DNA from: Hydrurus foetidus | Lineage: Eukaryota | Length of the DNA: 63,920 bases | Assembly: GCA_900617105.1 (NCBI GenBank) | Contig: UYFQ01000407.1 | Coordinates: 1 to 63,920, forward strand | Direction of reading: 5' to 3' | Shown here: one piece after another, positions 9,501 through 63,920 of the stretch | Layout of the letters: every line of letters starts with the position of its first letter | Numbering within the stretch: position 1 is the stretch's first letter | Notes under the pieces: generated by a model | The model's input: the letters and a program-made list of their open reading frames with translations, nothing else | What the model was told of the DNA's origin: nothing | The model's database searches: none | Translations under genes and position numbers: made by a program

Positions 9501-12500
9501 GTGGTGGAATAGGAGGTGGTAGCACACTGTGTAGCGGCTGCAAGGGCTGTTGTGTGGAAATCATCGAAGTGATCACACGTACTACACAGAGCATCCTTGG
9601 CACTTGACGAAATAAATTCCACGGGCAGAACTTTCGTGAGAAGGAGGTTCAAGGTCCCAGAGCACTTCGCCAGTAGTGCTTCCGACTCTATGACAGTCGG
9701 ATGCTCAAGAGTGATTTTGTTCTCCTCAGTGCCTTGCTCTTCTTGTTCCTCCTCCTCTTCTTCTTCTTCTTCTTCTTCATCATCTTCTGCATCTGATTGA
9801 GCTGCCCTTGCGACTCTCTTCGCCTCTTTCACAGCCTCTTTAGAGGCGATTAACAGACCGTCCCTTATAGCTTTTTCAACAGCTGCTATATCTCTTGCAG
9901 TACGTACGTGACTGTTCGCAGCCTCCATCAAGGACTCAATGTTGAAGTCCCATAGAGGCTGGATGTCTCCCCACACAACTTCGTCATAGGGCTCAATTAC
10001 TCTCTCTGGAAAGATTTCTAGGACCATTTTTCTGAGCTGTTTTAAGTCCCTATTCGTGACAGCAAATGCTTTACTCTTACTCTTGTGCGCATTGCGGTCT
10101 CCTTCTCCTTCTCCTTCTCCTCCTTTTTCTTCTCCTTCTCCACGGTCTCCGGATAGGATATTTGTGGTCTCACCAGCAATTCTTAAATCCTCTATTCTCA
10201 TCGACACCTTCCGGCCCAAGGTATTCACATCGTCACAGATGGATTCAAATAGGCCAATCCTGTCACTCGTCACTACCACAGGCATGCTCGACCCAAACGT
10301 CCCTCCCAGATTATGAAATATATCGCAATTTATCTTCTCGAATAATTTTATTTTTCGTTGATTTATATGCCCTATTTTAACAGGTTCCCGTAACTTTCGT
10401 TTTGCCAACACTATCCCGTCAGTTTCGATTGTTTTTAATACGTCCTTTTCAACAGAAGTAGAGACACTTTGCCTACTCAGAATAGAGCCATCCACTTCCT
10501 TGACATGTCCTCTCACTATGAGTTGTAGCGGTGTGAGACTGTCGTATTCAGGTTCCTGAGATTGAAACACCGTTGCTGTAGCTGCTAGAGCTGATAGCAA
10601 CATAGGATGCAACTTGTTCGCCTTTGCTTGAAGTGTTGCCTCAGCATTCAGGACTGGAGTAGAGAGAAATCGAGATGTCAGCTTGAGTTTTTCATCGGAG
10701 GATAATGCACTTCAAGAGTAGAAGAGGAGGTAGATGCGTTTGACAAGATCCAGGACAGACAAATCCATTATCTACCGAGCGCTTTCACAGTCACAGGGAA
10801 GCAGTGTTGTGCTTGTAGGTTGCTAAATACATGGAATGCAGAACATTGCATAAGTCATCACTTCAAAACAGTTCCTCTTACCCAGCGGATCAATAGCTAT
10901 GTTGGCCCTAGGGTGCGTGTCTAGAGCCCAGGCCTCCGTAACAGCTCCAGCCGTCCCTCGGGGGGAAAAAGAAAAAAGAGTACGCACTATCTCCCCTGGG
11001 AGAATAATCCCCTTGGCTTTCATGCAATATATCGGAGAACGTTCTGCAGATAAGAAATGTTCTCTTGACAGCATGTCCTTCAAGTCTGTGCGTCCTAGGA
11101 GCTCTGAAATAGTGGACACCTCAGGGGGGTCCCTTGCTTCATCGTCTTTGACAACGCTCCATTCATAGGTGAAAGCCACAGTACCAGTGTTTTTGAATGT
11201 GGCGGCTTTGTAAAGAATATCGCCTGATGGGAGAAGTAAGTGCGTATATGCACATCAGGATAAATAGGGACTACTGCATAGCGATAATGAAAGAAGCAGC
11301 ACATATGAAAGAGTAGTAAATGCAAACAGCTGGTCTATAGGATACAATATAATTTGATTTGTCGAAATCTCGACAGGAGAAAAGTAGCATCTTGTATAAA
11401 AACAATGCAATCGACAGCAATGCTTCTAAATGAATCTAACCGGCAGACAGACATACGTACACACATACGCACATACATACAGATAGAGTGAGTGGCATAC
11501 TCATTCAGTGACTTACATACCGATATTGGAGGAAAAGACCATTTCATCGTGGGACATGAAGAGCACCTTAGGACCCTCCACAGAATGTTCTTCTTTCGCG
11601 AAATTCGCTGCTCCAACACTGCCTCTTCTGCTACCTTCAAGGAGCGGAGAAAGAGGTAGAGGTGGAGATTGAGAGGGGAGGAGCAGGGTAGACATCGATG
11701 GGGACAATTACGGATAATTGGAATAGAAATGGTGGCGAGAGAGAATCAGTCAATATAATGCCTGCGAGCCAGCCACACACGAAAGCTATATGGACTATGC
11801 TACATTAATACAGATGATACGACCAGCATCAACCAAAGACATGCTGATCTCCACGCACACGTAAAAGTACACGAACTTACGTACCATTCCTGCTGCTGGT
11901 TCTGGACCCCCGTCTGGACCCTCTCCTCGTGCTCGAAGCCGATCTCAACTTGTCTGACGCAACAAAACAGAACAGCGATTAAAACTATCAAACTTCGCGC
12001 TATGCAGAGAATGAATGAGAGCTACTAATCGTGGTATTGTTTGTATTAGATCAATCAGTACCAGGAGTTTTGTCTCTTTTTCTGTCGAATACCCCACCAA
12101 AAGATGATCTCCGTGCCTCGAGCCTTCCTCTCTGCGCCGCCTTAGACTGTGGTATTGAAGAAGCAGATGTGTGTGTGCGTGTGCGTGTGTGTGTGAGAGA
12201 GAGAGAGAGAGATACAAGGGAGAGAGAGAAAGAGAGAGTGAGAGATAAAGATGTGTAGTGGTGGAAAAGTACTACAATAGGGTTTGTAGACTGATGGTAG
12301 TAAAGACTTGTCCGTGGAATCTCCGACGAAATTTTGGACAGCGATTTCAACGGCAGAAGAATATTGTAAATGCATGATGGCTCAGCTATGCGATGCGATG
12401 CGATGCGATGCGATGCGTTATGCGATGCAATTCTATGCACAATTGATTGTATGAGCGACAGAAGGAACGAAGTGAAAACACAAATGGAGCATTACTATAT

Positions 12501-14830: not shown

Positions 14831-15134
14831 TATTGCAAGTTTGCTGAATTTGCTATCCCCCTTAAATGCAGATGCTTAACAGCACTTTTACCCGCCTACA
14901 AAGCCATACTCTTTTTCTGGAGAGTTCACATCGTTAATTACACGGAACTGACAGTTGTTCGCGCAGATCTCATTCCTGCGGAATGGATCCATCTTGTTGG
15001 GAGAGGTGTAACTCATCTGGAGATCAACTACCAGATCGAGATCAGAGATCGAGATGTGAAACTCAGGCTGAAAGCTGGAAGCTGGAAAGACTCGCCCGAA
15101 TGCGGCAGTTTCTTTTTTGAAGCGTGCAGCACGT

Positions 15135-15531
15135 GATATGCGTAGACTAGGAATCCCTTTGGGGATAATATCATGAACGATATCCAGTCCGGATAGTTGT
15201 AGCTTAGGCATACGTTTTATGATTCCTTGTAGACCGGTTGATACTATACACCAACCCGCGGTCACATCAGGAATGAAATGTTGGAGTGATGAATCACACC
15301 AAGTAGCATACTAGCAGTTAGTATACAGCTGATGAAGTGGATGTTTTGACATGCTAACCACTTCTTATTAAAAGAGACTATATGACATCACGTCATTATA
15401 CCTACACTAGTTGACTTTTCTGCTGCTCTGGCTAGGCTTGCATTTCACAAGGTGTATTCTCAACGAATCACTAGCAACCTACCAGTTCAGTACCGGGATC
15501 AGTTATCCCTAAAGGAACGGTTTTACCAAGA
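15135..15531 (+). repeat. 5' LTR, lacking the first 6 nt (TGTTGG) present in the 3' LTR
   Basis: No mismatch seen versus the 3' copy; ends CCAAGA. Confidence 0.9.
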
Positions 15532-15541
15532 TAATAAGAAG
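15532..15541 (+). promoter_or_regulatory. Putative self-priming primer-binding site TAATAAGAAG
   Basis: Directly abuts the inferred LTR end; exact reverse complement of LTR positions 15361-15370; no TGG-type tRNA PBS between the LTR and the gag ATG. Confidence 0.7.
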
Positions 15542-15558
15542 CCTTTAAAGACTTTATC

Positions 15559-17433
15559 ATGAGTCAAAAAGGTTCCAAAGGTGGTGCGCCACCGAGGAAA
15601 GATGAGGGTGCAAATGGATCCCTTGAAAAGAGGATCATACCCGCAGGATTGGTTGAGATCAGCCATGATTGCCACAAGCAGTGGGATTCAATCATAGCTA
15701 AGCTGAAGGCGTACTGCAGGGACAACTATCAGGATCTAAAGTCAATCTGTCAGGATCCGATGAAAGTGACTGTTGCACCGGCTTACCGGAAGCACCTACC
15801 ACCTATGGCCACTGAGGCAGAGCTGGAGGCGATCGTGGAAGCGAACGATCCATCAGGAAACAAAAACAAGATCTTCATGGGACTCCTCAGCGGGAGGAAC
15901 AATCAATACCTCAAGTTGATGACCCAACAGAGGATCGACAAGGAGAACTGCTACACAGTCATTCGAGACATGTGCTCAGCACAGCTCAACTCGCTACTCT
16001 CCGTCGACGCCGCTTTCATAGCCTGCGAAGAAGATGACCCACTCGAATTGCTCAACATAATTAAGCGCCTTGTCACGGCACGGCCAGATGGAAATGAAGA
16101 ACTCGACCGTCAGAAAGCCCTCAGCGAGTGGTTTGGACTGAAAATGGAACATGGGGAGGTGATTCTGAATTATGGCCGGCGTGCTATCAAAACATTCGAA
16201 AGACTCACCACAACTGGAATACCAGTTGAAGAACAGCCAAAGCCAAAGCAGCAATCAATGCGCTTCATTGATGGGCTCGATGGATCAGTTCCGGCATACC
16301 ACGGTTACAAGATGTACCTGATCAATGCCAAACAGCAAACGGATCGAGACATATACCCTGCGACCCTCGTCGACGCAATCCTGCGAGCAACGAGATTTGA
16401 GACATCATTCATTGAGAATATCAATGCAACCCTCCCTCCGACAACGCCACATTCAGCATTCGGAGCTCAGCAGCAGACTGAAGATCGAGGAAAAAAGGGT
16501 GGCAAGCAGTTGGGGAAGGGCAAGGGTCACAAAGACAAACCTTCCAGCAAAGACACCAAGGCCGAATCTGACAAAGACAAGCCAAAAACAAAGTTCGAAG
16601 GCGAGTGTTTCAACTGTGGCAAGTTTGGCCACCGAAAATCTGAGTGCCGGAGCAAGGCGAAAGACGAGCCGAAAAAGGTGCGATTTGAGAAAAATCCAGA
16701 GCCGGCAAACAAGGCGAGCAGTCACTCCTCATATTACACATCATTTGGCAACATGCATGATGAAGAGGATGAAGAAATGGAAGATGATGATCGAAGATGC
16801 AATGTCGCGTTGAAAGGATCTCCACCCGACGACGGTGACGGAATCAGTCTACAGGCCACCCGAACTTCAATCCAACCATCATCGACCGAAGCGATTTTCG
16901 ACACCGGTGCCACCGGCACAATCATCACAAGCGCTGATGTTCTCTCAGAGATTTGGACGTGTCGGCCAACTGTGTTTAAGGGCTTGCATGGATCCTTGAC
17001 AGTGACAAAAGTCGGCAGACTTGGTGATATCGGCATCGTTCACTTCGATGATCGGGCGGCGCTCTCCATCATTTCAGCTTCGGATATCCTTTTGCAAGGA
17101 CACAACTGGGAGTTCCAACGTGGAGGACATGTTGATCAAGATGCTTTCCTGGTGCACACAGCAAAGCAAACCTATCGCTTTCAACATCGAGGTGGACTCT
17201 ATGTTTGCGATCTTGCATCACGACCAGAGCCTCGACATGAGAGCTCCAACAAGTCGAGATTAGAGTCAGCCAACCCCGCCATCGCTCTCAATAAGGCAGG
17301 AGGACCTTTTTCTCAGCTCCTTTGCCAACAACAACGGCAAATGAGGCAGCGTACTCCAAGCGCGAGGTTGCTCGAAGCTTCGATGCCCGACGGCTACAAG
17401 CAAGCCTTGGATTCCCACCCGACGCCAAGATGA
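15559..17433 (+). CDS. gag: Copia Gag plus aspartic protease
   Basis: Zinc knuckle CFNCGKFGHRKSEC; protease motif IFDTGAT; ...GGLYVCD at the protease end. Confidence 0.92.
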   Translation: MSQKGSKGGAPPRKDEGANGSLEKRIIPAGLVEISHDCHKQWDSIIAKLKAYCRDNYQDLKSICQDPMKVTVAPAYRKHLPPMATEAELEAIVEANDPSGNKNKIFMGLLSGRNNQYLKLMTQQRIDKENCYTVIRDMCSAQLNSLLSVDAAFIACEEDDPLELLNIIKRLVTARPDGNEELDRQKALSEWFGLKMEHGEVILNYGRRAIKTFERLTTTGIPVEEQPKPKQQSMRFIDGLDGSVPAYHGYKMYLINAKQQTDRDIYPATLVDAILRATRFETSFIENINATLPPTTPHSAFGAQQQTEDRGKKGGKQLGKGKGHKDKPSSKDTKAESDKDKPKTKFEGECFNCGKFGHRKSECRSKAKDEPKKVRFEKNPEPANKASSHSSYYTSFGNMHDEEDEEMEDDDRRCNVALKGSPPDDGDGISLQATRTSIQPSSTEAIFDTGATGTIITSADVLSEIWTCRPTVFKGLHGSLTVTKVGRLGDIGIVHFDDRAALSIISASDILLQGHNWEFQRGGHVDQDAFLVHTAKQTYRFQHRGGLYVCDLASRPEPRHESSNKSRLESANPAIALNKAGGPFSQLLCQQQRQMRQRTPSARLLEASMPDGYKQALDSHPTPR

Positions 17434-20400
17434 TCTCTGCTTTGAACGCCGGAGCATTCCTCAACTGCGACATCCTTCCTGAAGATGTTAATCGAGCAAC
17501 TGCGATCTGGGGTGCCAACATCGCTGCTCTGAAAGGGCGAACAGTTCGAGCCCGACCATTTCCAGCATTGCAAAGTCACCGTGATTTTAAAAGTCACCGT
17601 GATTTTAAAAGTCACCGTGATTCTGATGAGCAACACATGCATTGTGATGTCATGTTTGTCAATAAGCAACCATTCCTGGTTTCCATCACACATCCTCTTG
17701 GCATTGTCCTCGTTGCTTGCGTGGAGAATCTCACAGCGCCAATCCTGAGACAAAGCATCAGGAGGATGTTCGGCACCATCGGATCCCGCAGTATCAAGAT
17801 CACCCGCTTCACCAGCGACAATGAACGAGGGATCGCGGCGCTTGCAGGAGACATGAATGCAATGGGCGTGGCCGTCTCTCTCGTCGGACCAGGTCAGCAT
17901 GATCACATCGTGGAGCGGATGATCCGCCACCTGAAGGAGACCATTCGGGCCACCATACACAGCCTACCCTACCTAGTCGCTGACGCGATGATGAATCACT
18001 TGGTGCTGAGCTGCTCCAAGAAACTACTGTTGTTCCCTTCGTCCACACGAACGGACAAAATATCTCCCTTTGAGGCCTTCTTCGGGAGAAAGGCTGATAC
18101 AAAGATGGACATCGGTCCACCTTTCGGCACCTACTGTCAGGTCACCAACCGCACCATGTCGAATGGCATGGACCAGCGCACGATTGGATGCCTTTACCTG
18201 GAGCCGAAGATGAATGGCACAGGAACACATGCATTCCTTCGGTTGGACAATCGGGCGACCATCAATGCGAACCACTATGTGGTACTGCCGATCCCACCCA
18301 TCGTTATCACTACCGTGAATGGGTGGGCGGCAAAGAACAAGCTGCATACCTCGATCGACCCGATCTTCACATTCCACGACCGAGACATCACAAATGATGT
18401 CGACAATGATGCCGTCGGAAACATTACTCGTGCAGCACCACCGACAGCGGCACCAATCGGAGACCGCGGACCCATTCAGGACCCATTTCCGCCGTCAATT
18501 CCCACCGCACCAATCGGTTTTGAATCCCCACCGACACAATCGCCAATGGAGATTCGGGGTGAGACTGATACGGTTCCAGACACAGAAAACCTACATGAAA
18601 CTTCTGGCGAAATATCGGAACCAACGGAGCCCGTTGAAGAGATTCCGGAGGAGAACGCTTTTGATAGTGCACCGGTGAACGTACGTAAGTACACACCTCG
18701 ACCCATAGAACCAAGGGAAAAGTCATCCAGACTGAAGAAACCAATCGACCGACTTAACTTAACAGCGGAAGAAGTATCAACTCAAGCACAAGAAATCGAC
18801 AATCCGCATGTTTGGTCGATGATGTCAGTTACTCGGGGACTGAAGCTCTTCCCGGAAAAGACTGCATTCGCCATCGAGTCAGAGGTCAAATCGCTCCTCG
18901 CAAAGGACACATTCTCAGGGGTGCACATGTCACAACTGACACAACCACAGCGAAACAAGATCCTGCGTTCGATCATGAACGTCACGGAGAAGTTCCTACC
19001 CACACTAAACTCGGAGGGTAACCGAGAGATCGACAAGGTCAAGGCCAGGTTCTGTGTCGATGGGCGCGCGCAAGTGCGAACCGACTACAAGCCCGATGAG
19101 ATCGAATCACCCACTGCTTCCATGGCCGCAATATTCACCGTAGCGCAACTGGCGGCAGCGGAGAAACGGTTTGTTATGGTGGGTGATGTGGGGTCCGCGT
19201 ACCTCAACGCGAAAATGCCGCTGGATAAACCGGATAAAATCCTGCACATGATGATAACTAAAGATGTGGCGGATGAAATCGTACGACAAGACAAGTCATT
19301 TGCTGCGTACCGAATGCACAATGGAAGCATTCTGGTACGTCTGAACAAGGCACTATATGGCTGTATCGAGTCTGCCAAACTGTGGTATGAGGAAATAGCC
19401 GGAACCCTACGGTCCAACGGTTTCACGGCCAACCCGCGCGACCTTTGCGTCTTTAACAAGAGCATCAAAGGAAAGCAATTCACGATTGTTGTCTACGTCG
19501 ACGACTTAAAGATGACGTGTGTTGACAAGGACGCTGTCCTCGCCATGGAACAGATCCTGCTAAAAGTTTACGGCCAATTCAGGACAACACAGGGGCCTAT
19601 CGTATCGTACCTAGGCCTGACCTGGGACTACAGTGAAACAGGATACGTGAAAGTTTCACAAGCAGGGATGATCCAAGACATTGTTGCTGCAAGAGAGAAG
19701 ACTCACAAAGACCGCGGAACCAAACCCGCTGGAATTCCGCACTCACCAGGTGCTCCTCACCTGTTTGATCGAACCCCTGACAGTGAGCTGTTGAGTGCCA
19801 AGGATGCAGAAATATATCACACCGACACCGCAACCATTGCATGGACATGCTCGCGTGCACATCCGAGCCTCACAACAGTGGTGGGCGAACTCTCAAAACG
19901 AGTGAAAGCACCATCCTACGAGGATGACAAGAAGCTCGACAGGGTCATCAGCTATGCGAAGTACGTACGTGACGTACCCCTACGACTCAAAGCTGACCTC
20001 CCACCAAGAGTCACGGTATCAATTGATGCTGCATTTGCGAATCGCGACAACATGAAATCAACCTCAGGAATGTGCGTCACATTAGGGGTGGGATTTTTCA
20101 TCACGAGTTCCAAGGTCCAGAAGCTGAATTCCAAGTCGAGCACGGAGGCTGAGATCATCGCGGTGTCCGACGGGATGAACATCCCATTATGGCTCGCAGA
20201 CTTCATCCGCCTTCAAGGATACGATCCACAACCAGTGCGATTGGAGCAGGATAACCAATCCTGTATCACACTACTCACGAAAGGTCGGTCTACCGCAGAG
20301 ACCACCAGGTTCATCGAGATCCGGAAATTCTGGATCTCGGACTATATCAAGAACGGTGCAGTGGACATTGTCTATGTTCCCACGGCGGAAATGACTTCCG

Positions 20401-20471
20401 ACTACTTTACAAAACCGTTGCAAGGTGCGATTTTCGACAAAATGTTCAAGAAAATAATGGGACAAAAGTAA
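17295..20471 (+). CDS. pol: Copia Pol (integrase, reverse transcriptase, RNase H), in the -1 frame relative to gag-PR
   Basis: Open from the TAA at 17292-17294. Integrase D(CDVMF), D(SDNE), E(VERMIR); RT KARF, GDVGSAYL, LNKALYG, YVDD; RNase H DAAF, TEAE, EQDN, DYFTK. Confidence 0.95.
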   Translation, partial: GRRTFFSAPLPTTTANEAAYSKREVARSFDARRLQASLGFPPDAKMISALNAGAFLNCDILPEDVNRATAIWGANIAALKGRTVRARPFPALQSHRDFKSHRDFKSHRDSDEQHMHCDVMFVNKQPFLVSITHPLGIVLVACVENLTAPILRQSIRRMFGTIGSRSIKITRFTSDNERGIAALAGDMNAMGVAVSLVGPGQHDHIVERMIRHLKETIRATIHSLPYLVADAMMNHLVLSCSKKLLLFPSSTRTDKISPFEAFFGRKADTKMDIGPPFGTYCQVTNRTMSNGMDQRTIGCLYLEPKMNGTGTHAFLRLDNRATINANHYVVLPIPPIVITTVNGWAAKNKLHTSIDPIFTFHDRDITNDVDNDAVGNITRAAPPTAAPIGDRGPIQDPFPPSIPTAPIGFESPPTQSPMEIRGETDTVPDTENLHETSGEISEPTEPVEEIPEENAFDSAPVNVRKYTPRPIEPREKSSRLKKPIDRLNLTAEEVSTQAQEIDNPHVWSMMSVTRGLKLFPEKTAFAIESEVKSLLAKDTFSGVHMSQLTQPQRNKILRSIMNVTEKFLPTLNSEGNREIDKVKARFCVDGRAQVRTDYKPDEIESPTASMAAIFTVAQLAAAEKRFVMVGDVGSAYLNAKMPLDKPDKILHMMITKDVADEIVRQDKSFAAYRMHNGSILVRLNKALYGCIESAKLWYEEIAGTLRSNGFTANPRDLCVFNKSIKGKQFTIVVYVDDLKMTCVDKDAVLAMEQILLKVYGQFRTTQGPIVSYLGLTWDYSETGYVKVSQAGMIQDIVAAREKTHKDRGTKPAGIPHSPGAPHLFDRTPDSELLSAKDAEIYHTDTATIAWTCSRAHPSLTTVVGELSKRVKAPSYEDDKKLDRVISYAKYVRDVPLRLKADLPPRVTVSIDAAFANRDNMKSTSGMCVTLGVGFFITSSKVQKLNSKSSTEAEIIAVSDGMNIPLWLADFIRLQGYDPQPVRLEQDNQSCITLLTKGRSTAETTRFIEIRKFWISDYIKNGAVDIVYVPTAEMTSDYFTKPLQGAIFDKMFKKIMGQK

Positions 20472-20650
20472 CATCTCTTTATCTCACACTCAAAAAGTCA
20501 CCGTGATTTTTGACTATATGGTTATGATGATAACTACGCAGAAACCTATATTAGTTATGATAATTACCACGTTTTAACACCATGTGATGATAAATAATTT
20601 GCATGATACCTAAACAACCATGTGACTGAATGTCGATGACATTAGGGGTG

Positions 20651-21053
20651 TGTTGGGATATGCGTAGACTAGGAATCCCTTTGGGGATAATATCATGAAC
20701 GATATCCAGTCCGGATAGTTGTAGCTTAGGCATACGTTTTATGATTCCTTGTAGACCGGTTGATACTATACACCAACCCGCGGTCACATCAGGAATGAAA
20801 TGTTGGAGTGATGAATCACACCAAGTAGCATACTAGCAGTTAGTATACAGCTGATGAAGTGGATGTTTTGACATGCTAACCACTTCTTATTAAAAGAGAC
20901 TATATGACATCACGTCATTATACCTACACTAGTTGACTTTTCTGCTGCTCTGGCTAGGCTTGCATTTCACAAGGTGTATTCTCAACGAATCACTAGCAAC
21001 CTACCAGTTCAGTACCGGGATCAGTTATCCCTAAAGGAACGGTTTTACCAAGA
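20651..21053 (+). repeat. 3' LTR (TGTTGG...CCAAGA)
   Basis: Follows the PPT; termini form a 5/6 inverted repeat. Confidence 0.9.
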
Positions 21054-21253
21054 TACCTAACCGTACAGTTTTCAAGGGAACCCGATGTTGTTCGACTGGA
21101 CATTCTTTTACACATACGTCACAACATCGCATCGCATCATAGATCAGATGTCACTACATATCAAGTAGAATCGGCTCCATAATTGTCGCGACTAAAGCCG
21201 TCGTAGAACAGGTCACAGATAACGCTCCCTTGAGCCTCAGATTTCTATTCAGC

Positions 21254-35538: not shown

Positions 35539-37233
35539 ATGGCGTGCCAAAGGTGTTCTTATTATTTTCACCGTTTTCCCCAGGATCCCGTACTTTTCTT
35601 TCTCCGCTCCTGTACCCTCGCATCTCCTAACTCCAAATCATCATATGCCTCAACTCATAGCACAGTAGAAAATGCAGCTTCACTCCAGTTGGTAAAGTGA
35701 ATCAGCAGTTCCTCAACATGTCTATCACAGCAGCTATAGCCGCTACTCCTTCCTTCGGAAATTTTCATCACCAGAGAAATCAAGCATCCCGAAGACTCAT
35801 GAAAACAGGAAATTTTACCATCTCCAAACCATACAGAGTATCTGCAACAGCAGGTAAGACTCTTCTAACGCTTGATTCTTGCTTGAACATGCACCAAAAT
35901 CTAGCTACTTAACTTTTATACGTCAAAGGCTGACGCCAAATGTTCCATTCCACTGAAATTTTTTGATGCCATTTTCGTCTTAAAAAATAGTTCCTCTCTA
36001 TTTTGCAACTGAGCCGCTCAATTCACACGAAATTCTGAGCGAAGTAGCACAGTATATCTGTCATAATGCTCGCAAATTCTTAGCGTCTCATGTATTATGT
36101 GGCATTTGCTGTTATAGTTACAAGCGTTCAAAAACATCACCTCAATATTACCATCACTTTTGCAAATATCTCGCGGATTATTACTCTGCTGATAGAATAG
36201 AATATTGGGATCATTACATTACATACTGAATAGAATGTCTTGAAGATTTCGCAGCAGAGCGTAACAAATTGTAATTTAAAGCATTCTTATCCTGAGAAAC
36301 GTGCTCTTTCACGGACAGTTTTTGAAACTCCTGACTGCTTATGCAAAATGCCGCTTGTAAAACGGCGGTTCAAAGAACCAGTCTAGCTTTTCTTGAGGCT
36401 CGAGTGCAAGGGGCAATGGGCTTTTATCTCCTTAGACAATTCTGGGTCAGCAGCACGCTAAGCACAGAGATTCAAAAACTGTCTGTGAAAGAGCACGTTT
36501 CTCAGGATAAGAATGCTTTAAATTACAATTTGTTACGCTCTGCTGCGAAATCTTCAAGATATTCTATTCAGTATGTAATGTAATGATCCCAATATTCTAT
36601 TCTATCAGCAGAGTAATAATCCGCGAGATATTTGCAAAAGTGATGGTGATATTGAGGTGATGTTTTTGAACGCTTGTAACTATAACAGCAAATGCCACAT
36701 AATACATGAGACGCTAAGAATTTGCGAGCATTATGAGAGATATACTGTGTGAATTGAGCGGCTCAGTTGCAAAATAGAGAGGAACTATTTTTTAAGACGA
36801 AAATGGCATCAAAAAATTTCGGTGGAATGGAACATTTGGCGTCAGCCTTTGACGTATAAAAGTTAAGTAGCTAGATTTTGGTGCATGTTCAAGCAAGAAT
36901 CAAGCGTTAGAAGAGTCTTACCTGCTGTTGCAGATACTCTGTATGGTTTGGAGATGGTAAAATTTCCTGTTTTCATGAGTCTTCGGGATGCTTGATTTCT
37001 CTGGTGATGAAAATTTCCGAAGGAAGGAAGCGCTATAGCTGCTGTGATAGACATGTTGAGGAACTGCTGATTCACTTTACCAACTGGAGTGAAGCTGCAT
37101 TTTCTACTGTGCTATGAGTTGAGGCATATGATGATTTGGAGTTTGGAGATGCGAGGGTACAGGAGCGGAGAAAGAAAAGTACGGGATCCTGGGGAAAACG
37201 GTGAAAATAATAAAAACACCTTTGGCATGCCAT
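35539..37233. repeat. Long inverted repeat: ~790-bp arms around a ~120-145 bp spacer
   Basis: 35539-~36330 is the reverse complement of ~36467-37233, with scattered substitutions and a 22-bp indel; mirror ORFs 35697-35912(+) and 36863-37075(-). Confidence 0.95.
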
Positions 37234-45773: not shown

Positions 45774-46669
45774 ATGGACTTTTTTGCGTTTTGCCTATGT
45801 TTCCACCATCAACCAGAAGAAGAGGAGGAGGAGGACTACGGTGACGTTTGGAGAGATGCCGAGGGCGGCAGCGACTATGACCCGTACTTAGCGGACAAAA
45901 TGAGAATCGGTATTGATGCTGAAGCTGCATCAATAAAAAGGATGAAGCTCTTTGTAGGCTTGGAGGAAAATGACAGGGACATCATGCCTGTAGGACCGCA
46001 CTGGCAGCCGTTTTCCTCCAAAGATAATATTGAAGTGAAAGATGCAGTCATAGAGGGAAGCATCTGGCAAGCAGTGAAAGCTACCACTCGCGTAAAAGCT
46101 GATAGGATGAAAATTCTGGATCTCATCTTGGACGATAGTCGCATCCACGAGTACGACGAGATGTTCGATTTCAGCAAGGTACGCATTTATATTTGGGATA
46201 TTATTTGTAGTGACGTAATAACTCGTACGTGTTATCACTACAGCTGCTCCTTACTGTTAATGACCGGACTGTCATACGAAGAATGTGTTACAAGCCCGTG
46301 TGGCCAACTGCCCCGAGGGACTTTCTCTGCTGCATAACGTGGACAGATCTGGAGGATGGATCAATTTTAATTTGCTCGCGCGCCGTGCCCAACAAATTTA
46401 TGAAGACACAGGAGGAGTACGTGAGGGGTTCTGTGGACGTCACCGGTTACTGGATACAGCCATGTGATCAATTGGACAAAGACGACCCACACTACATGCC
46501 TTCGAGCACATCCCCAGGTTGCAAAGTGACATTAGCAGTGCACACCGATCTCGGGGGAACTCTGCCGACATGGATTATCAATTTGCTTATCACAGAAGCG
46601 CCGATAAAGATACTGACAAACATTGCTCGAATATTCGATGACGAAATGGCTCTAGTTGTTGGGCAATAA
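45774..46669 (+). CDS. START-domain lipid-binding protein; 2 exons (intron 46179-46243)
   Basis: R..YDEM, VWPTAPRDF, YVRG, HTDLGGTLPTWIIN motifs. Confidence 0.9.
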
Positions 46670-47350: not shown

Positions 47351-48697
47351 TTAACTATTCTCTAAGATGAGTTTAATTTTCGTCATCATTTTTGTCGGTA
47401 ATCCTACAGATAGAATGTTCACAACCGCGGAAGGGAGATTTCCCTTTAGGTCTGAGTGACCTATCATTGTTACAGCACACCCTCCACCAGCTCTACTGTC
47501 AATGGGTCGAATAAGTATGCCGGATATGTTGATGTGCGCTCTGACATATCCTTTGGCAGCCGGATGAATAAATGGCGGGGGTGATATTGTGGACATCAAT
47601 ATACTGCCATCAGGGAGATGTGTGTGTGATGAACACAAAATAAAATCTCTAGGAGATGTAGGCCATATTCCTTTGTAATAATATCTCCTCACACGCACGT
47701 CATCTCCGAAGTTACCCAGATCCTATGAATGTGTGTCAAATGTAATTGAGGACGCAAAGTCAGGGAGGGCATAGGAAGAATAATGGAGTGCTCTTCTGTG
47801 ACTGGACAGTGGAATGGTGCATGCGAATCAATCATGTTGGGGCTGATTTGAAAACGTCATACTCTCCATGAAAAATGAGGGGAAATGCTTCATAGTTACC
47901 TCGTAGCCCTCCATAGAATCGTCGTATTCGGAGCTCCTGGTGTCATCCATCATCAATTTTAGTATCATTTCCTTGTCTCCGCGAATAATGCAGTCAGATT
48001 TGATAGCGAGCCATGGACTATCAGGCACATTGCATGTATGCACATTTACATCTTTCGTGGTAGCTCTTGATACCCAATTCAGTGTTAGACCTTTTTCGCG
48101 CGTTAATCCGGTAAATAATTTCATGATGCGTTGCCCCTCATTAAGCAAATCACGACCAAGCAACATTTTGTCATTTGCGTAATCACCCTCCTTTGAAAAT
48201 ACCAAAGAATACATTGTAGGGGTGCACGGAAAATCATTTGACCAATCAAAAACCTTCAACGAGTTCTCTATAAATGACTTCGAATGTTGAAGAATTTTGC
48301 CGGCGTTAATATCAGTAAACTCTTCATCTTCCATGGAACCGGTGTATAGAATGTAGTCATCATCAGGCATGTAGTAAGCTGTAGAAGTGACGCAAAATAT
48401 GCTAGACAATATCAGCCAGATTTCGGACAGAATTGAGGATGGATTAGCGTCGCGGACAACCTTCCGTGAAGATGAAGCGGCTTTTTTGCGGCCGCCGGTA
48501 CAAAACGTATCATCTAAAGTCTCCTCTCTGAAATCTCTTCCTTTCGGGGTCGATCTTGATGATTTTGCTACATCTGCTAGAAGATGACGGGGTGGGTATG
48601 GCGCGGTTCGTATTCTCGAGTGATCATTACCATCCAACTCGAGGGAACCGATGATGCCTTCATCAATTGAAGTTGTGCAATTATCTTGAGAATGCAT
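47351..48697 (-). CDS. Second START-domain protein (intron ~47724-47899; start uncertain)
   Basis: RSSEYDDSM, IWPTSPRDF, GYVRA, HSDLKGNLPSAVVN motifs. Confidence 0.88.
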
Positions 48698-58565: not shown

Positions 58566-61500
58566 GTATGTCACTGTGTACTGAAATCAGCCCGTGGATC
58601 GCTGCAACTCACAGCACTCTAATCTGTACATAGATAACAATATTGCATCGTCAGTGTAGGCTGGAATGTACTGCAAAATGTCTGTACGTACTGGGTGAGA
58701 TGTACGTATCACTCACCAATATGTAGGGGTCGGGACCAGTATGTCACTGTGTACTGAAATCAGCCCGTGGATCGCTGCAACTCACAGCACTCTAATCTGT
58801 ACATAGATAACAATATTGCATCGTCAGTGTAGGCTGGAATGTACTGCAAAATGTCTGTACGTACTGGGTGAGATGTACGTATCACTCACCAATATGTAGG
58901 GGTCGGGACCAGTATGTCACTGTGTACTGAAATCAGCCCGTGGATCGCTGCAACTCACAGCACTCTAATCTGTACATAGATAACAATATTGCGTCGTCAG
59001 TGTAGGCTGGAATGTACTGCAAAATGTCTGTACGTACTGGGTGAGATGTACGTATCACTCACCAATATGTAGGGGTCGGGACCAGTATGTCACTGTGTAC
59101 TGAAATCAGCCCGTGGATCGCTGCAACTCACAGCACTCTAATCTGTACATAGATAACAATATTGCGTCGTCAGTGTAGGCTGGAATGTACTGCAAAATGT
59201 CTGTACGTACTGGGTGAGATGTACGTATCACTCACCAATATGTAGGGGTCGGGACCAGTATGTCACTGTGTACTGAAATCAGCCCGTGGATCGCTGCAAC
59301 TCACAGCACTCTAATCTGTACATAGATAACAATATTGCATCGTCAGTGTAGGCTGGAATGTACTGCAAAATGTCTGTACGTACTGGGTGAGATGTACGTA
59401 TCACTCACCAATATGTAGGGGTCGGGACCAGTATGTCACTGTGTACTGAAATCAGCCCGTGGATCGCTGCAACTCACAGCACTCTAATCTGTACATAGAT
59501 AACAATATTGCATCGTCAGTGTAGGCTGGAATGTACTGCAAAATGTCTGTACGTACTGGGTGAGATGTACGTATCACTCACCAATATGTAGGGGTCGGGA
59601 CCAGTATGTCACTGTGTACTGAAATCAGCCCGTGGATCGCTGCAACTCACAGCACTCTAATCTGTACATAGATAACAATATTGCATCGTCAGTGTAGGCT
59701 GGAATGTACTGCAAAATGTCTGTACGTACTGGGTGAGATGTACGTATCACTCACCAATATGTAGGGGTCGGGACCAGTATGTCACTGTGTACTGAAATCA
59801 GCCCGTGGATCGCTGCAACTCACAGCACTCTAATCTGTACATAGATAACAATATTGCGTCGTCAGTGTAGGCTGGAATGTACTGCAAAATGTCTGTACGT
59901 ACTGGGTGAGATGTACGTATCACTCACCAATATGTAGGGGTCGGGACCAGTATGTCACTGTGTACTGAAATCAGCCCGTGGATCGCTGCAACTCACAGCA
60001 CTCTAATCTGTACATAGATAACAATATTGCATCGTCAGTGTAGGCTGGAATGTACTGCAAAATGTCTGTACGTACTGGGTGAGATGTACGTATCACTCAC
60101 CAATATGTAGGGGTCGGGACCAGTATGTCACTGTGTACTGAAATCAGCCCGTGGATCGCTGCAACTCACAGCACTCTAATCTGTACATAGATAACAATAT
60201 TGCATCGTCAGTGTAGGCTGGAATGTACTGCAAAATGTCTGTACGTACTGGGTGAGATGTACGTATCACTCACCAATATGTAGGGGTCGGGACCAGTATG
60301 TCACTGTGTACTGAAATCAGCCCGTGGATCGCTGCAACTCACAGCACTCTAATCTGTACATAGATAACAATATTGCGTCGTCAGTGTAGGCTGGAATGTA
60401 CTGCAAAATGTCTGTACGTACTGGGTGAGATGTACGTATCACTCACCAATATGTAGGGGTCGGGACCAGTATGTCACTGTGTACTGAAATCAGCCCGTGG
60501 ATCGCTGCAACTCACAGCACTCTAATCTGTACATAGATAACAATATTGCGTCGTCAGTGTAGGCTGGAATGTACTGCAAAATGTCTGTACGTACTGGGTG
60601 AGATGTACGTATCACTCACCAATATGTAGGGGTCGGGACCAGTATGTCACTGTGTACTGAAATCAGCCCGTGGATCGCTGCAACTCACAGCACTCTAATC
60701 TGTACATAGATAACAATATTGCATCGTCAGTGTAGGCTGGAATGTACTGCAAAATGTCTGTACGTACTGGGTGAGATGTACGTATCACTCACCAATATGT
60801 AGGGGTCGGGACCAGTATGTCACTGTGTACTGAAATCAGCCCGTGGATCGCTGCAACTCACAGCACTCTAATCTGTACATAGATAACAATATTGCATCGT
60901 CAGTGTAGGCTGGAATGTACTGCAAAATGTCTGTACGTACTGGGTGAGATGTACGTATCACTCACCAATATGTAGGGGTCGGGACCAGTATGTCACTGTG
61001 TACCGAAATCAGCCCGTGGATCGCTGCAACTCACAGCACTCTAATCTGTACATAGATAACAATATTGCGTCGTCAGTGTAGGCTGGAATGTACTGCAAAA
61101 TGTCTGTACGTACTGGGTGAGATGTACGTATCACTCACCAATATGTAGGGGTCGGGACCAGTATGTCACTGTGTACTGAAATCAGCCCGTGGATCGCTGC
61201 AACTCACAGCACTCTAATCTGTACATAGATAACAATATTGCGTCGTCAGTGTAGGCTGGAATGTACTGCAAAATGTCTGTACGTACTGGGTGAGATGTAC
61301 GTATCACTCACCAATATGTAGGGGTCGGGACCAGTATGTCACTCACTGTGTACTGAAATCAGCCCGTGGATCGCTGCAACTCACAGCACTCTAATCTGTA
61401 CATAGATAACAATATTGCGTCGTCAGTGTAGGCTGGAATGTACTGCAAAATGTCTGTACGTACTGGGTGAGATGTACGTATCACTCACCAATATGTAGGG

Positions 61501-63920
61501 GTCGGGACCAGTATGTCACTGTGTACTGAAATCAGCCCGTGGATCGCTGCAACTCACAGCACTCTAATCTGTACATAGATAACAATATTGCGTCGTCAGT
61601 GTAGGCTGGAATGTACTGCAAAATGTCTGTACGTACTGGGTGAGATGTACGTATCACTCACCAATATGTAGGGGTCGGGACCAGTATGTCACTGTGTACT
61701 GAAATCAGCCCGTGGATCGCTGCAACTCACAGCACTCTAATCTGTACATAGATAACAATATTGCGTCGTCAGTGTAGGCTGGAATGTACTGCAAAATGTC
61801 TGTACGTACTGGGTGAGATGTACGTATCACTCACCAATATGTAGGGGTCGGGACCAGTATGTCACTGTGTACTGAAATCAGCCCGTGGATCGCTGCAACT
61901 CACAGCACTCTAATCTGTACATAGATAACAATATTGCGTCGTCAGTGTAGGCTGGAATGTACTGCAAAAATGTCTGTACGTACTGGGTGAGATGTACGTA
62001 TCACTCACCAATATGTAGGGGTCGGGACCAGTATGTCACTGTGTACTGAAATCAGCCCGTGGATCGCTGCAACTCACAGCACTCTAATCTGTACATAGAT
62101 AACAATATTGCGTCGTCAGTGTAGGCTGGAATGTACTGCAAAATGTCTGTACGTACTGGGTGAGATGTACGTATCACTCACCAATATGTAGGGGTCGGGA
62201 CCAGTATGTCACTGTGTACTGAAATCAGCCCGTGGATCGCTGCAACTCACAGCACTCTAATCTGTACATAGATAACAATATTGCATCGTCAGTGTAGGCT
62301 GGAATGTACTGCAAAATGTCTGTACGTACTGGGTGAGATGTACGTATCACTCACCAATATGTAGGGGTCGGGACCAGTATGTCACTGTGTACTGAAATCA
62401 GCCCGTGGATCGCTGCAACTCACAGCACTCTAATCTGTACATAGATAACAATATTGCGTCGTCAGTGTAGGCTGGAATGTACTGCAAAATGTCTGTACGT
62501 ACTGGGTGAGATGTACGTATCACTCACCAATATGTAGGGGTCGGGACCAGTATGTCACTGTGTACTGAAATCAGCCCGTGGATCGCTGCAACTCACAGCA
62601 CTCTAATCTGTACATAGATAACAATATTGCATCGTCAGTGTAGGCTGGAATGTACTGCAAAATGTCTGTACGTACTGGGTGAGATGTACGTATCACTCAC
62701 CAATATGTAGGGGTCGGGACCAGTATGTCACTGTGTACTGAAATCAGCCCGTGGATCGCTGCAACTCACAGCACTCTAATCTGTACATAGATAACAATAT
62801 TGCGTCGTCAGTGTAGGCTGGAATGTACTGCAAAATGTCTGTACGTACTGGGTGAGATGTACGTATCACTCACCAATATGTAGGGGTCGGGACCAGTATG
62901 TCACTGTGTACTGAAATCAGCCCGTGGATCGCTGCAACTCACAGCACTCTAATCTGTACATAGATAACAATATTGCATCGTCAGTGTAGGCTGGAATGTA
63001 CTGCAAAATGTCTGTACGTACTGGGTGAGATGTACGTATCACTCACCAATATGTAGGGGTCGGGACCAGTATGTCACTGTGTACTGAAATCAGCCCGTGG
63101 ATCGCTGCAACTCACAGCACTCTAATCTGTACATAGATAACAATATTGCGTCGTCAGTGTAGGCTGGAATGTACTGCAAAATGTCTGTACGTACTGGGTG
63201 AGATGTACGTATCACTCACCAATATGTAGGGGTCGGGACCAGTATGTCACTGTGTACTGAAATCAGCCCGTGGATCGCTGCAACTCACAGCACTCTAATC
63301 TGTACATAGATAACAATATTGCGTCGTCAGTGTAGGCTGGAATGTACTGCAAAATGTCTGTACGTACTGGGTGAGATGTACGTATCACTCACCAATATGT
63401 AGGGGTCGGGACCAGTATGTCACTGTGTACTGAAATCAGCCCGTGGATCGCTGCAACTCACAGCACTCTAATCTGTACATAGATAACAATATTGCGTCGT
63501 CAGTGTAGGCTGGAATGTACTGCAAAATGTCTGTACGTACTGGGTGAGATGTACGTATCACTCACCAATATGTAGGGGTCGGGACCAGTATGTCACTGTG
63601 TACTGAAATCAGCCCGTGGATCGCTGCAACTCACAGCACTCTAATCTGTACATAGATAACAATATTGCGTCGTCAGTGTAGGCTGGAATGTACTGCAAAA
63701 TGTCTGTACGTACTGGGTGAGATGTACGTATCACTCACCAATATGTAGGGGTCGGGACCAGTATGTCACTGTGTACTGAAATCAGCCCGTGGATCGCTGC
63801 AACTCACAGCACTCTAATCTGTACATAGATAACAATATTGCGTCGTCAGTGTAGGCTGGAATGTACTGCAAAATGTCTGTACGTACTGGGTGAGATGTAC
63901 GTATCACTCACCAATATGTA
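58566..63920. repeat. 173-bp tandem satellite array, ~31 copies, running off the window end
   Basis: Period measured directly (GTATGTCACTG at 58566, 58739, 58912...); units nearly identical. Confidence 0.99.

Follow-up and report, generated by a model that had tools for sequence, protein, structure and literature searches.

The Ty1/copia-type LTR retrotransposon that spans positions 15135-21053 (+) of the window, by which we mean the whole 63,920-nt stretch of DNA analysed, is a recent insertion. Tf1-like self-priming is the best reading of this Copia element, and covariation in relatives, taken with the analogy to Tf1, makes that reading highly probable. In the proposed mechanism, transcription would start at a CCA/C initiator, at 15360 or 15361, and the 5' end of the RNA would fold back over about 170 nt onto the primer-binding site (PBS), or anneal in trans to that of an RNA packaged with it. 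Cleavage just behind the final paired base, 15370, would then free a 3'-OH flush with U5; as in Tf1, the enzyme is probably the element's own RNase H. From this 3'-OH the reverse transcriptase (RT) would copy U5 and R and, since it would extend from the cut, the cut site would also fix the right end of the LTR. The predicted primer would be the first 10-11 bases of the element's own RNA, replacing tRNA. We infer the start site, the cut and the enzyme from sequence and analogy, and we read the pairing as a self-primer because a covarying helix sits at the start of the minus strand and its other arm begins at an initiator. The features of the element, all on the forward strand, are the following.

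15135-15531 (+), 5' LTR, its left end 5-6 nt shorter than that of the family (from the 3' copy, other copies and the empty site)
15358-15364 (+), initiator-like CCACTTC, with the start predicted at 15360 or 15361 (consensus fit; same motif in relatives)
15361-15370 (+), predicted self-primer, 5' end of R (complement of the PBS; paired in the MFE and centroid folds)
15526-15531 (+), LTR right end CCAAGA, a non-canonical GA end (breaks in other copies and one contig end at 15531, several runs)
15532-15541 (+), candidate PBS, flush with the LTR end and without a tRNA-type TGG (from sequence)
15559-17433 (+), gag with one CCHC knuckle (PF00098) and aspartic protease with a DTG motif (profile and motif)
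17295-20471 (+), integrase-like core (D..D..E, no HHCC), Copia-type RT and RNase H (PF07727, E=1e-17)
20644-20650 (+), purine tract AGGGGTG before the 3' LTR (from sequence; the GGGGTG/TGTTG junction recurs in relatives)
20651-21053 (+), 3' LTR, TGTTGG...CCAAGA, 403 nt (other copies and the empty site)

The features that define a Copia element are present: two LTRs and a purine tract, a Copia-type RT (RVT_2) and an RNase H. The gene order is gag-PR-IN-RT-RH, with the CCHC knuckle, the DTG protease and the D..D..E core followed by a C-terminal RT-RH. Features that are typical of Copia without defining it are absent, in that the right end is GA and not CA and comparison with the empty allele shows no 4-6 bp target-site duplication. 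The RT-RH profile matches canonical Copia P0047 with a probability of 99.9, and the integrase core matches P0050 weakly (E=8e-6, in a search against 2 sequences). By eye, the HHCC motif is absent from all 14 aligned integrase sequences; Pfam rve, which does match a canonical Copia, has no match in three clade members and P0028. Profile searches gave no match to gag_pre-integrase in the clade proteins and none to a chromodomain in the element. To judge by these comparisons, the integrase of the clade is divergent and its proteins lie a long way from canonical Copia. A relative that begins with the same residues (77% identity) backs the gag ATG at 15559. A one-base frameshift near 17.3 kb breaks the polyprotein frame in the window copy; contigs vary there, and it is either a true mutation or an error of assembly. 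The protein relatives each have one uninterrupted ORF of about 1630 aa. Within the integrase region, positions 17572-17622 hold an in-frame tandem repeat (18 bp, 2.8 copies), the near-palindromic core of which is seen again in the 3' untranslated region at about 20494-20512.

The 5' and 3' LTRs agree at every position of a 399-nt stretch (15135-15533 = 20657-21055) and, because the identity extends to 15533, comparison of the LTRs alone leaves the right end ambiguous by 2 nt. Other copies of the family run into foreign flank after 15531 and carry TGTTGG before 15135. In public contigs, other insertions break off behind 15531 (at least three in X1, at least three in X3 and at least one in X16); X3 also has at least two loose ends behind 15532, and a high-depth X3 contig terminates at 15531. 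These breaks place the right end of the LTR at 15531, where a reading of the DNA made without database searches (hereafter the sequence-only reading) had put it on the strength of CCAAGA. An LTR end at 15533 (TG...TA) is ruled out by the empty site and by the loose ends of other copies.

An empty allele, in which 15133 is joined to 21054 with 1 nt of ambiguity, was found in three of four runs, and its contigs in X1 and X2 show no further differences from the window. This places the insert at 15134-21053 to within one base, 21053 being its last; T15134 is either a base of the element or a 1-nt duplication. The TGTTGG that opens the 3' LTR at 20651 and the other copies is missing from the 5' LTR. 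The GA right end is a trait of the family, and the left end of the window copy is clipped by 5-6 nt. It is likely either that this imprecise left junction reflects one-ended integration completed by end joining, or that a small deletion occurred afterwards. Contigs of the element family reach roughly 40-fold the depth of the flanking sequence, a depth that is not to be equated with copy number, and with the identical LTRs and the empty allele the family looks active. The public runs with matching contigs are mostly from freshwater and sediment, and this, with a plastid fibrillin gene adjacent to the element, makes it likely that the host is an alga.

The ten nucleotides abutting the LTR, 15532-15541 (TAATAAGAAG), are the exact reverse complement of 15361-15370, as the sequence-only reading had noticed. 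Its other statements about this region were borne out as well: the gap between the LTR end, now taken from contigs, and the gag ATG, now taken from a relative, is 27 nt and contains no TGG. The stretch 15100-15620 holds 10 perfect inverted repeats of at least 7 nt, among which the 10-nt PBS pair is the longest and the other nine are 7 nt. The CCACTTC that had been proposed as an initiator-like site on another consensus also fits YCAYTYY, the oomycete initiator (PMC3599244), and the arms of relatives start at the same motif. It resembles the diatom motifs CAY+1A and TCAH+1W, in which +1 is the base after CA (PMC4686930), and with that placement the start would be 15361, the first paired base. 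When RNA 15360-15575 is folded, both the MFE and the centroid structure join nt 2-11 to the PBS (z = -3.8; 0 of 200 shuffles as stable), in agreement with the pairing earlier proposed for a transcript from A15360. The PBS-primer duplexes of the clade are weak; that of the window element comes to -8.4 kcal/mol. Variants at partner positions occur at 15536 in X1 and at 15366 in X17, each in one single, unphased contig. The one RNA-library contig that is close to the element begins at 15342, 18 nt upstream of 15360, and continues into flank; it may for that reason be DNA or a 3' copy, and it is uninformative on the start site.

Relatives were sampled as 84 loci, namely L001-L004 and the best 80 of 142 from a metagenome scan with RT patterns. 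L001-L004 are eukaryotic Copia contigs inside four bacterial MAGs, where they are likely to be contamination. A metagenome scan with gag-protease patterns returned zero relatives, and scans of viral contigs gave no relatives of the element. All 84 loci are distant from the window element (29-46% RT-RH identity); closer relatives, 52-99% identical, are known as proteins, and the covariation tests cover only the distant loci. Removal of 4 loci without RNase H and 14 without a usable LTR-leader region left 66, which were grouped into 34 families with less than 60% identity between families. Automatic calling of LTR ends from terminal repeats was too noisy, and a boundary-blind test was used in its place, in which the longest inverted repeat was sought with LTR ends undefined in one unselected locus per family and compared with 60 dinucleotide shuffles. 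This blind test is the unbiased one, the cognate lengths and the YCAHW count given below being partly selected by construction.

The sequence-only reading had proposed to look in related families for a complementarity that persists while its letters change, and the outcome was strongly positive. An inverted repeat of at least 10 nt is present in 28 of the 34 sampled families (shuffles: mean 6.7, maximum 12), with the right arm at an ACA end, three offsets being allowed, in 26 of 34 (shuffles 4.1, maximum 8). The left arm lies at YCA in 22 of 34, against 5.3 in shuffles (maximum 9), so that an LTR arm starting at an initiator-like motif is far commoner than in shuffles. Both an ACA end and a YCA start occur together in 16 of 34 families (shuffles 0.47, maximum 2), and 29 of 34 have at least one positive member. 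The PBS letters of different families are unrelated, with a mean pairwise identity of 4.1/10, and TGG stands at none of 48 PBS sites in the sampled loci. These 48 include L079, whose top repeat in the blind test derives from the 3' flank and which is not a family representative; its true pair is the one used in the comparison with L083 and in that of LTR ends. Between L079 and L083 (93% RT identity) there is one compensatory change, from T-A to C-G; in other close pairs the PBS differs at up to 7 of 12 positions, each PBS still matching its own LTR.

These data bear directly on the possibility that a host tRNA or tRNA fragment primes the element and that the match to the LTR is due to chance. 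Half-tRNA priming without TGG does occur in Copia lineages (PMC6317226), but the shuffle controls above speak against a chance match, as do a swap control, in which a PBS matched the LTR of another family over at least 10 nt in only 7 of 870 comparisons, and an offset control, in which shifted starts within the same element gave at least 9 nt in 5 of 1200. Moreover, the PBS letters shift with the LTR between close relatives, which a fixed tRNA would forbid. We consider tRNA priming the least probable of the explanations weighed here, with hardly any chance of being correct.

Outside the anchor of 41 CA-anchored arms, a pyrimidine occupies position -2 in 37 and +1 in 38, and +2 is A/T in all 41; YCAHW occurs in 22 of 30, a count partly selected by construction. 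Counted from the initiator A, primer lengths across the sampled clade are 10-17 nt, with the same partial selection. Alternatively, the AT-rich LTR arm could be a TATA-like U3 element, with the start about 30 nt downstream (e.g. TCATT at 15393) and the PBS pairing with 20883-20892 near the 3' end of the RNA, which would circularise it. The arms of the clade have only 14% GC, CTTATTAAAAG (15364-15374) resembles a TATA box, and a second TCAT follows 23-30 nt downstream. Against this, the 5' edge of the arm coincides with YCAYW across families, oomycete promoters are described as having no detected TATA boxes (PMC3599244), and a U3 primer cut at the 3' end would presumably remove the copy of R that is needed for strand transfer. 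A TATA-like role for the arm is therefore very improbable.

The right arm of the helix begins at the LTR end, or one base inside it, at nearly all positive loci. In L025, L040, L079 and L083, divergence of the 5' and 3' copies fixes the LTR end independently, and this end meets the edge of the PBS, apart from a few bases that match by chance. At 42 of the 45 sites folded, the predicted probability of the helix exceeds 0.5. Covariation demonstrates pairing and not priming, however, and the helix could be structural, closing the R-U5 leader for packaging, stability or translation while another RNA or route provides the primer. The perfect PBS/LTR complement of L009, at 33-34 nt twice the usual length, exceeds what a primer needs. 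The Tf1 PBS complex is described as a three-duplex pretzel with flanking helices (bioRxiv 2022.12.06.519325); a crude test with 14-nt probes found no excess pairing for the flanking duplexes (1 of 20 at p<=0.05 for each, with 20 of 30 tested), and by this modelling the pretzel may be absent from the clade. A stem of this kind nevertheless has no reason to sit at the obligatory first base of the minus strand, as the position of the right arm shows it to do, and an outside primer is hard to reconcile with the lack of any PBS motif common to the families. We judge a purely structural helix unlikely and continue to prefer self-priming.

The trait is spread over the whole sampled clade, with the window element nested within it, in a FastTree phylogeny of 77 rows, all unnamed, rooted on two canonical Copia. 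Five of the 34 sampled families have no 10-nt match; in three of these the match at the LTR end is just 8-9 nt and YCA is missing, and these three cluster in the tree. A sub-clade of L004, L060, L024, L038, L039 and L034 has matches of 7-10 nt at the LTR end, again without YCA, and may have a different type of host promoter or a different priming route.

Like Tf1/sushi elements, the window element has a PBS that directly adjoins the 5' LTR and is the complement of 10-11 nt at the predicted start of the RNA. The Tf1 self-primer is the first 11 nt, and RNase H cuts between nt 11 and 12 (PMC7175516). Tf1/sushi elements are, however, Ty3/gypsy chromoviruses with the order RT-RH-IN and a chromodomain, whereas the order and RT here are those of Copia and no chromodomain is matched. 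The element thus appears to work like Tf1, by analogy, but from its coding sequence it is outside the Tf1/sushi group. Fission-yeast elements are also reported always to end in CA (bioRxiv 2022.12.06.519325), in contrast to the GA of the window element. An LTR end other than CA is found in 4 of the 30 positive representatives, window included, and the LTR of L025 also ends in GA. Non-CA right ends (GA, CG, TA) were seen in the window element, L025, L051, L081 and L017, in a clade whose integrase lacks HHCC.

To our knowledge, the one element with experimental proof of self-priming is the Gypsy element Tf1; in Copia, self-priming is a prediction made for one plant lineage. The sequence-only reading had called self-priming established for the Tf1/sushi Gypsy group; this stands for Tf1, but it overlooked that self-priming had also been predicted in print for the plant Ty1/copia lineage TAR (Houba, Osr-1), in 89% of 203 elements (PMC6317226). 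The window element has what was used to recognise self-priming in TAR, a stretch of at least 10 nt that begins within 0-5 nt of the LTR and can pair with it (PMC6317226). TAR elements differ in that they are Copia of land plants with 5-bp target duplications in 95% (PMC6317226), where the window copy has none, in that the proteins here, without rve or gag_pre-integrase matches, are far from canonical Copia, and in that the host here is probably an alga. Self-priming in Copia is therefore not first proposed here.

To us, the integrase and RT motifs of the element look CoDi-like. CoDi A-D belong to Copia branch 1 (Llorens 2009, PMC2774666), and the likeness extends to their being algal Copia in which 3 of 26 families lack TG/CA ends and target duplications are irregular (Maumus 2009, PMC2806351). 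CoDi hosts are diatoms; the host of this element may not be one. The main texts of Maumus 2009 (PMC2806351) and Llorens 2009 (PMC2774666) contain nothing on PBS type or self-priming. GalEa, a fungal Copia, is similar in belonging to branch 1 and having no tRNA PBS, but it has a conserved hairpin site and no LTR complement (PMC5445492), in contrast to the LTR complement with freely varying letters found here. Our search, which lay outside subscription journals and Repbase, found no paper on self-priming in this algal or CoDi-like clade. Repbase is said to carry a remark from 2003 on self-priming in Thalassiosira Copia families.

We offer a wider hypothesis tentatively, and hold it somewhat less likely than not. 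A deep-branching Copia clade with many species, living in algae and protists with non-diatom hosts among them, may have given up tRNA priming independently of Tf1/sushi and of plant TAR. The host initiator would set the 5' end of the primer, and one short AU-rich helix would suffice with no pretzel. The HHCC-less integrase would tolerate non-CA LTR ends (4/30 families), the RNA cut site replacing the CA motif as the determinant of the end. Within the literature searched, with the same two exceptions, no part of this combined hypothesis has a published description.

A third, very old Copia clade with free covariation would supply dozens of natural primer/PBS pairs, and the self-priming reading predicts the start site of each element to the base. 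The number of origins of tRNA-independent priming becomes testable, as does the question of whether it is ancestral, which has been proposed (PMC3601003). Self-priming would account for the failure of PBS finders on algal Copia, and self-priming elements would be expected to evade control by tRNA fragments.

Several features of the surrounding DNA may be recorded. No Rfam matches or tRNA genes were found within the 63,920-nt window. The element stands some 200 nt upstream of an ORF for a plastid fibrillin. An exon at 10823-11254 (-) is like that of MYCBPAP, a protein of the ciliary central apparatus; together with the fibrillin gene it suggests a flagellate alga with a central pair, which diatoms lack. 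Two convergent START-domain genes lie at 46214-46669 (+) and 47351-47722 (-). An inverted repeat of 800 bp (35539-36341 and 36459-37233, 95% identical, with a 117-bp spacer) is possibly a foldback element. From 58566 to 63920 the DNA is a satellite with a 173-bp unit in 30.9 copies, 99% identical, which continues past the end of the window.
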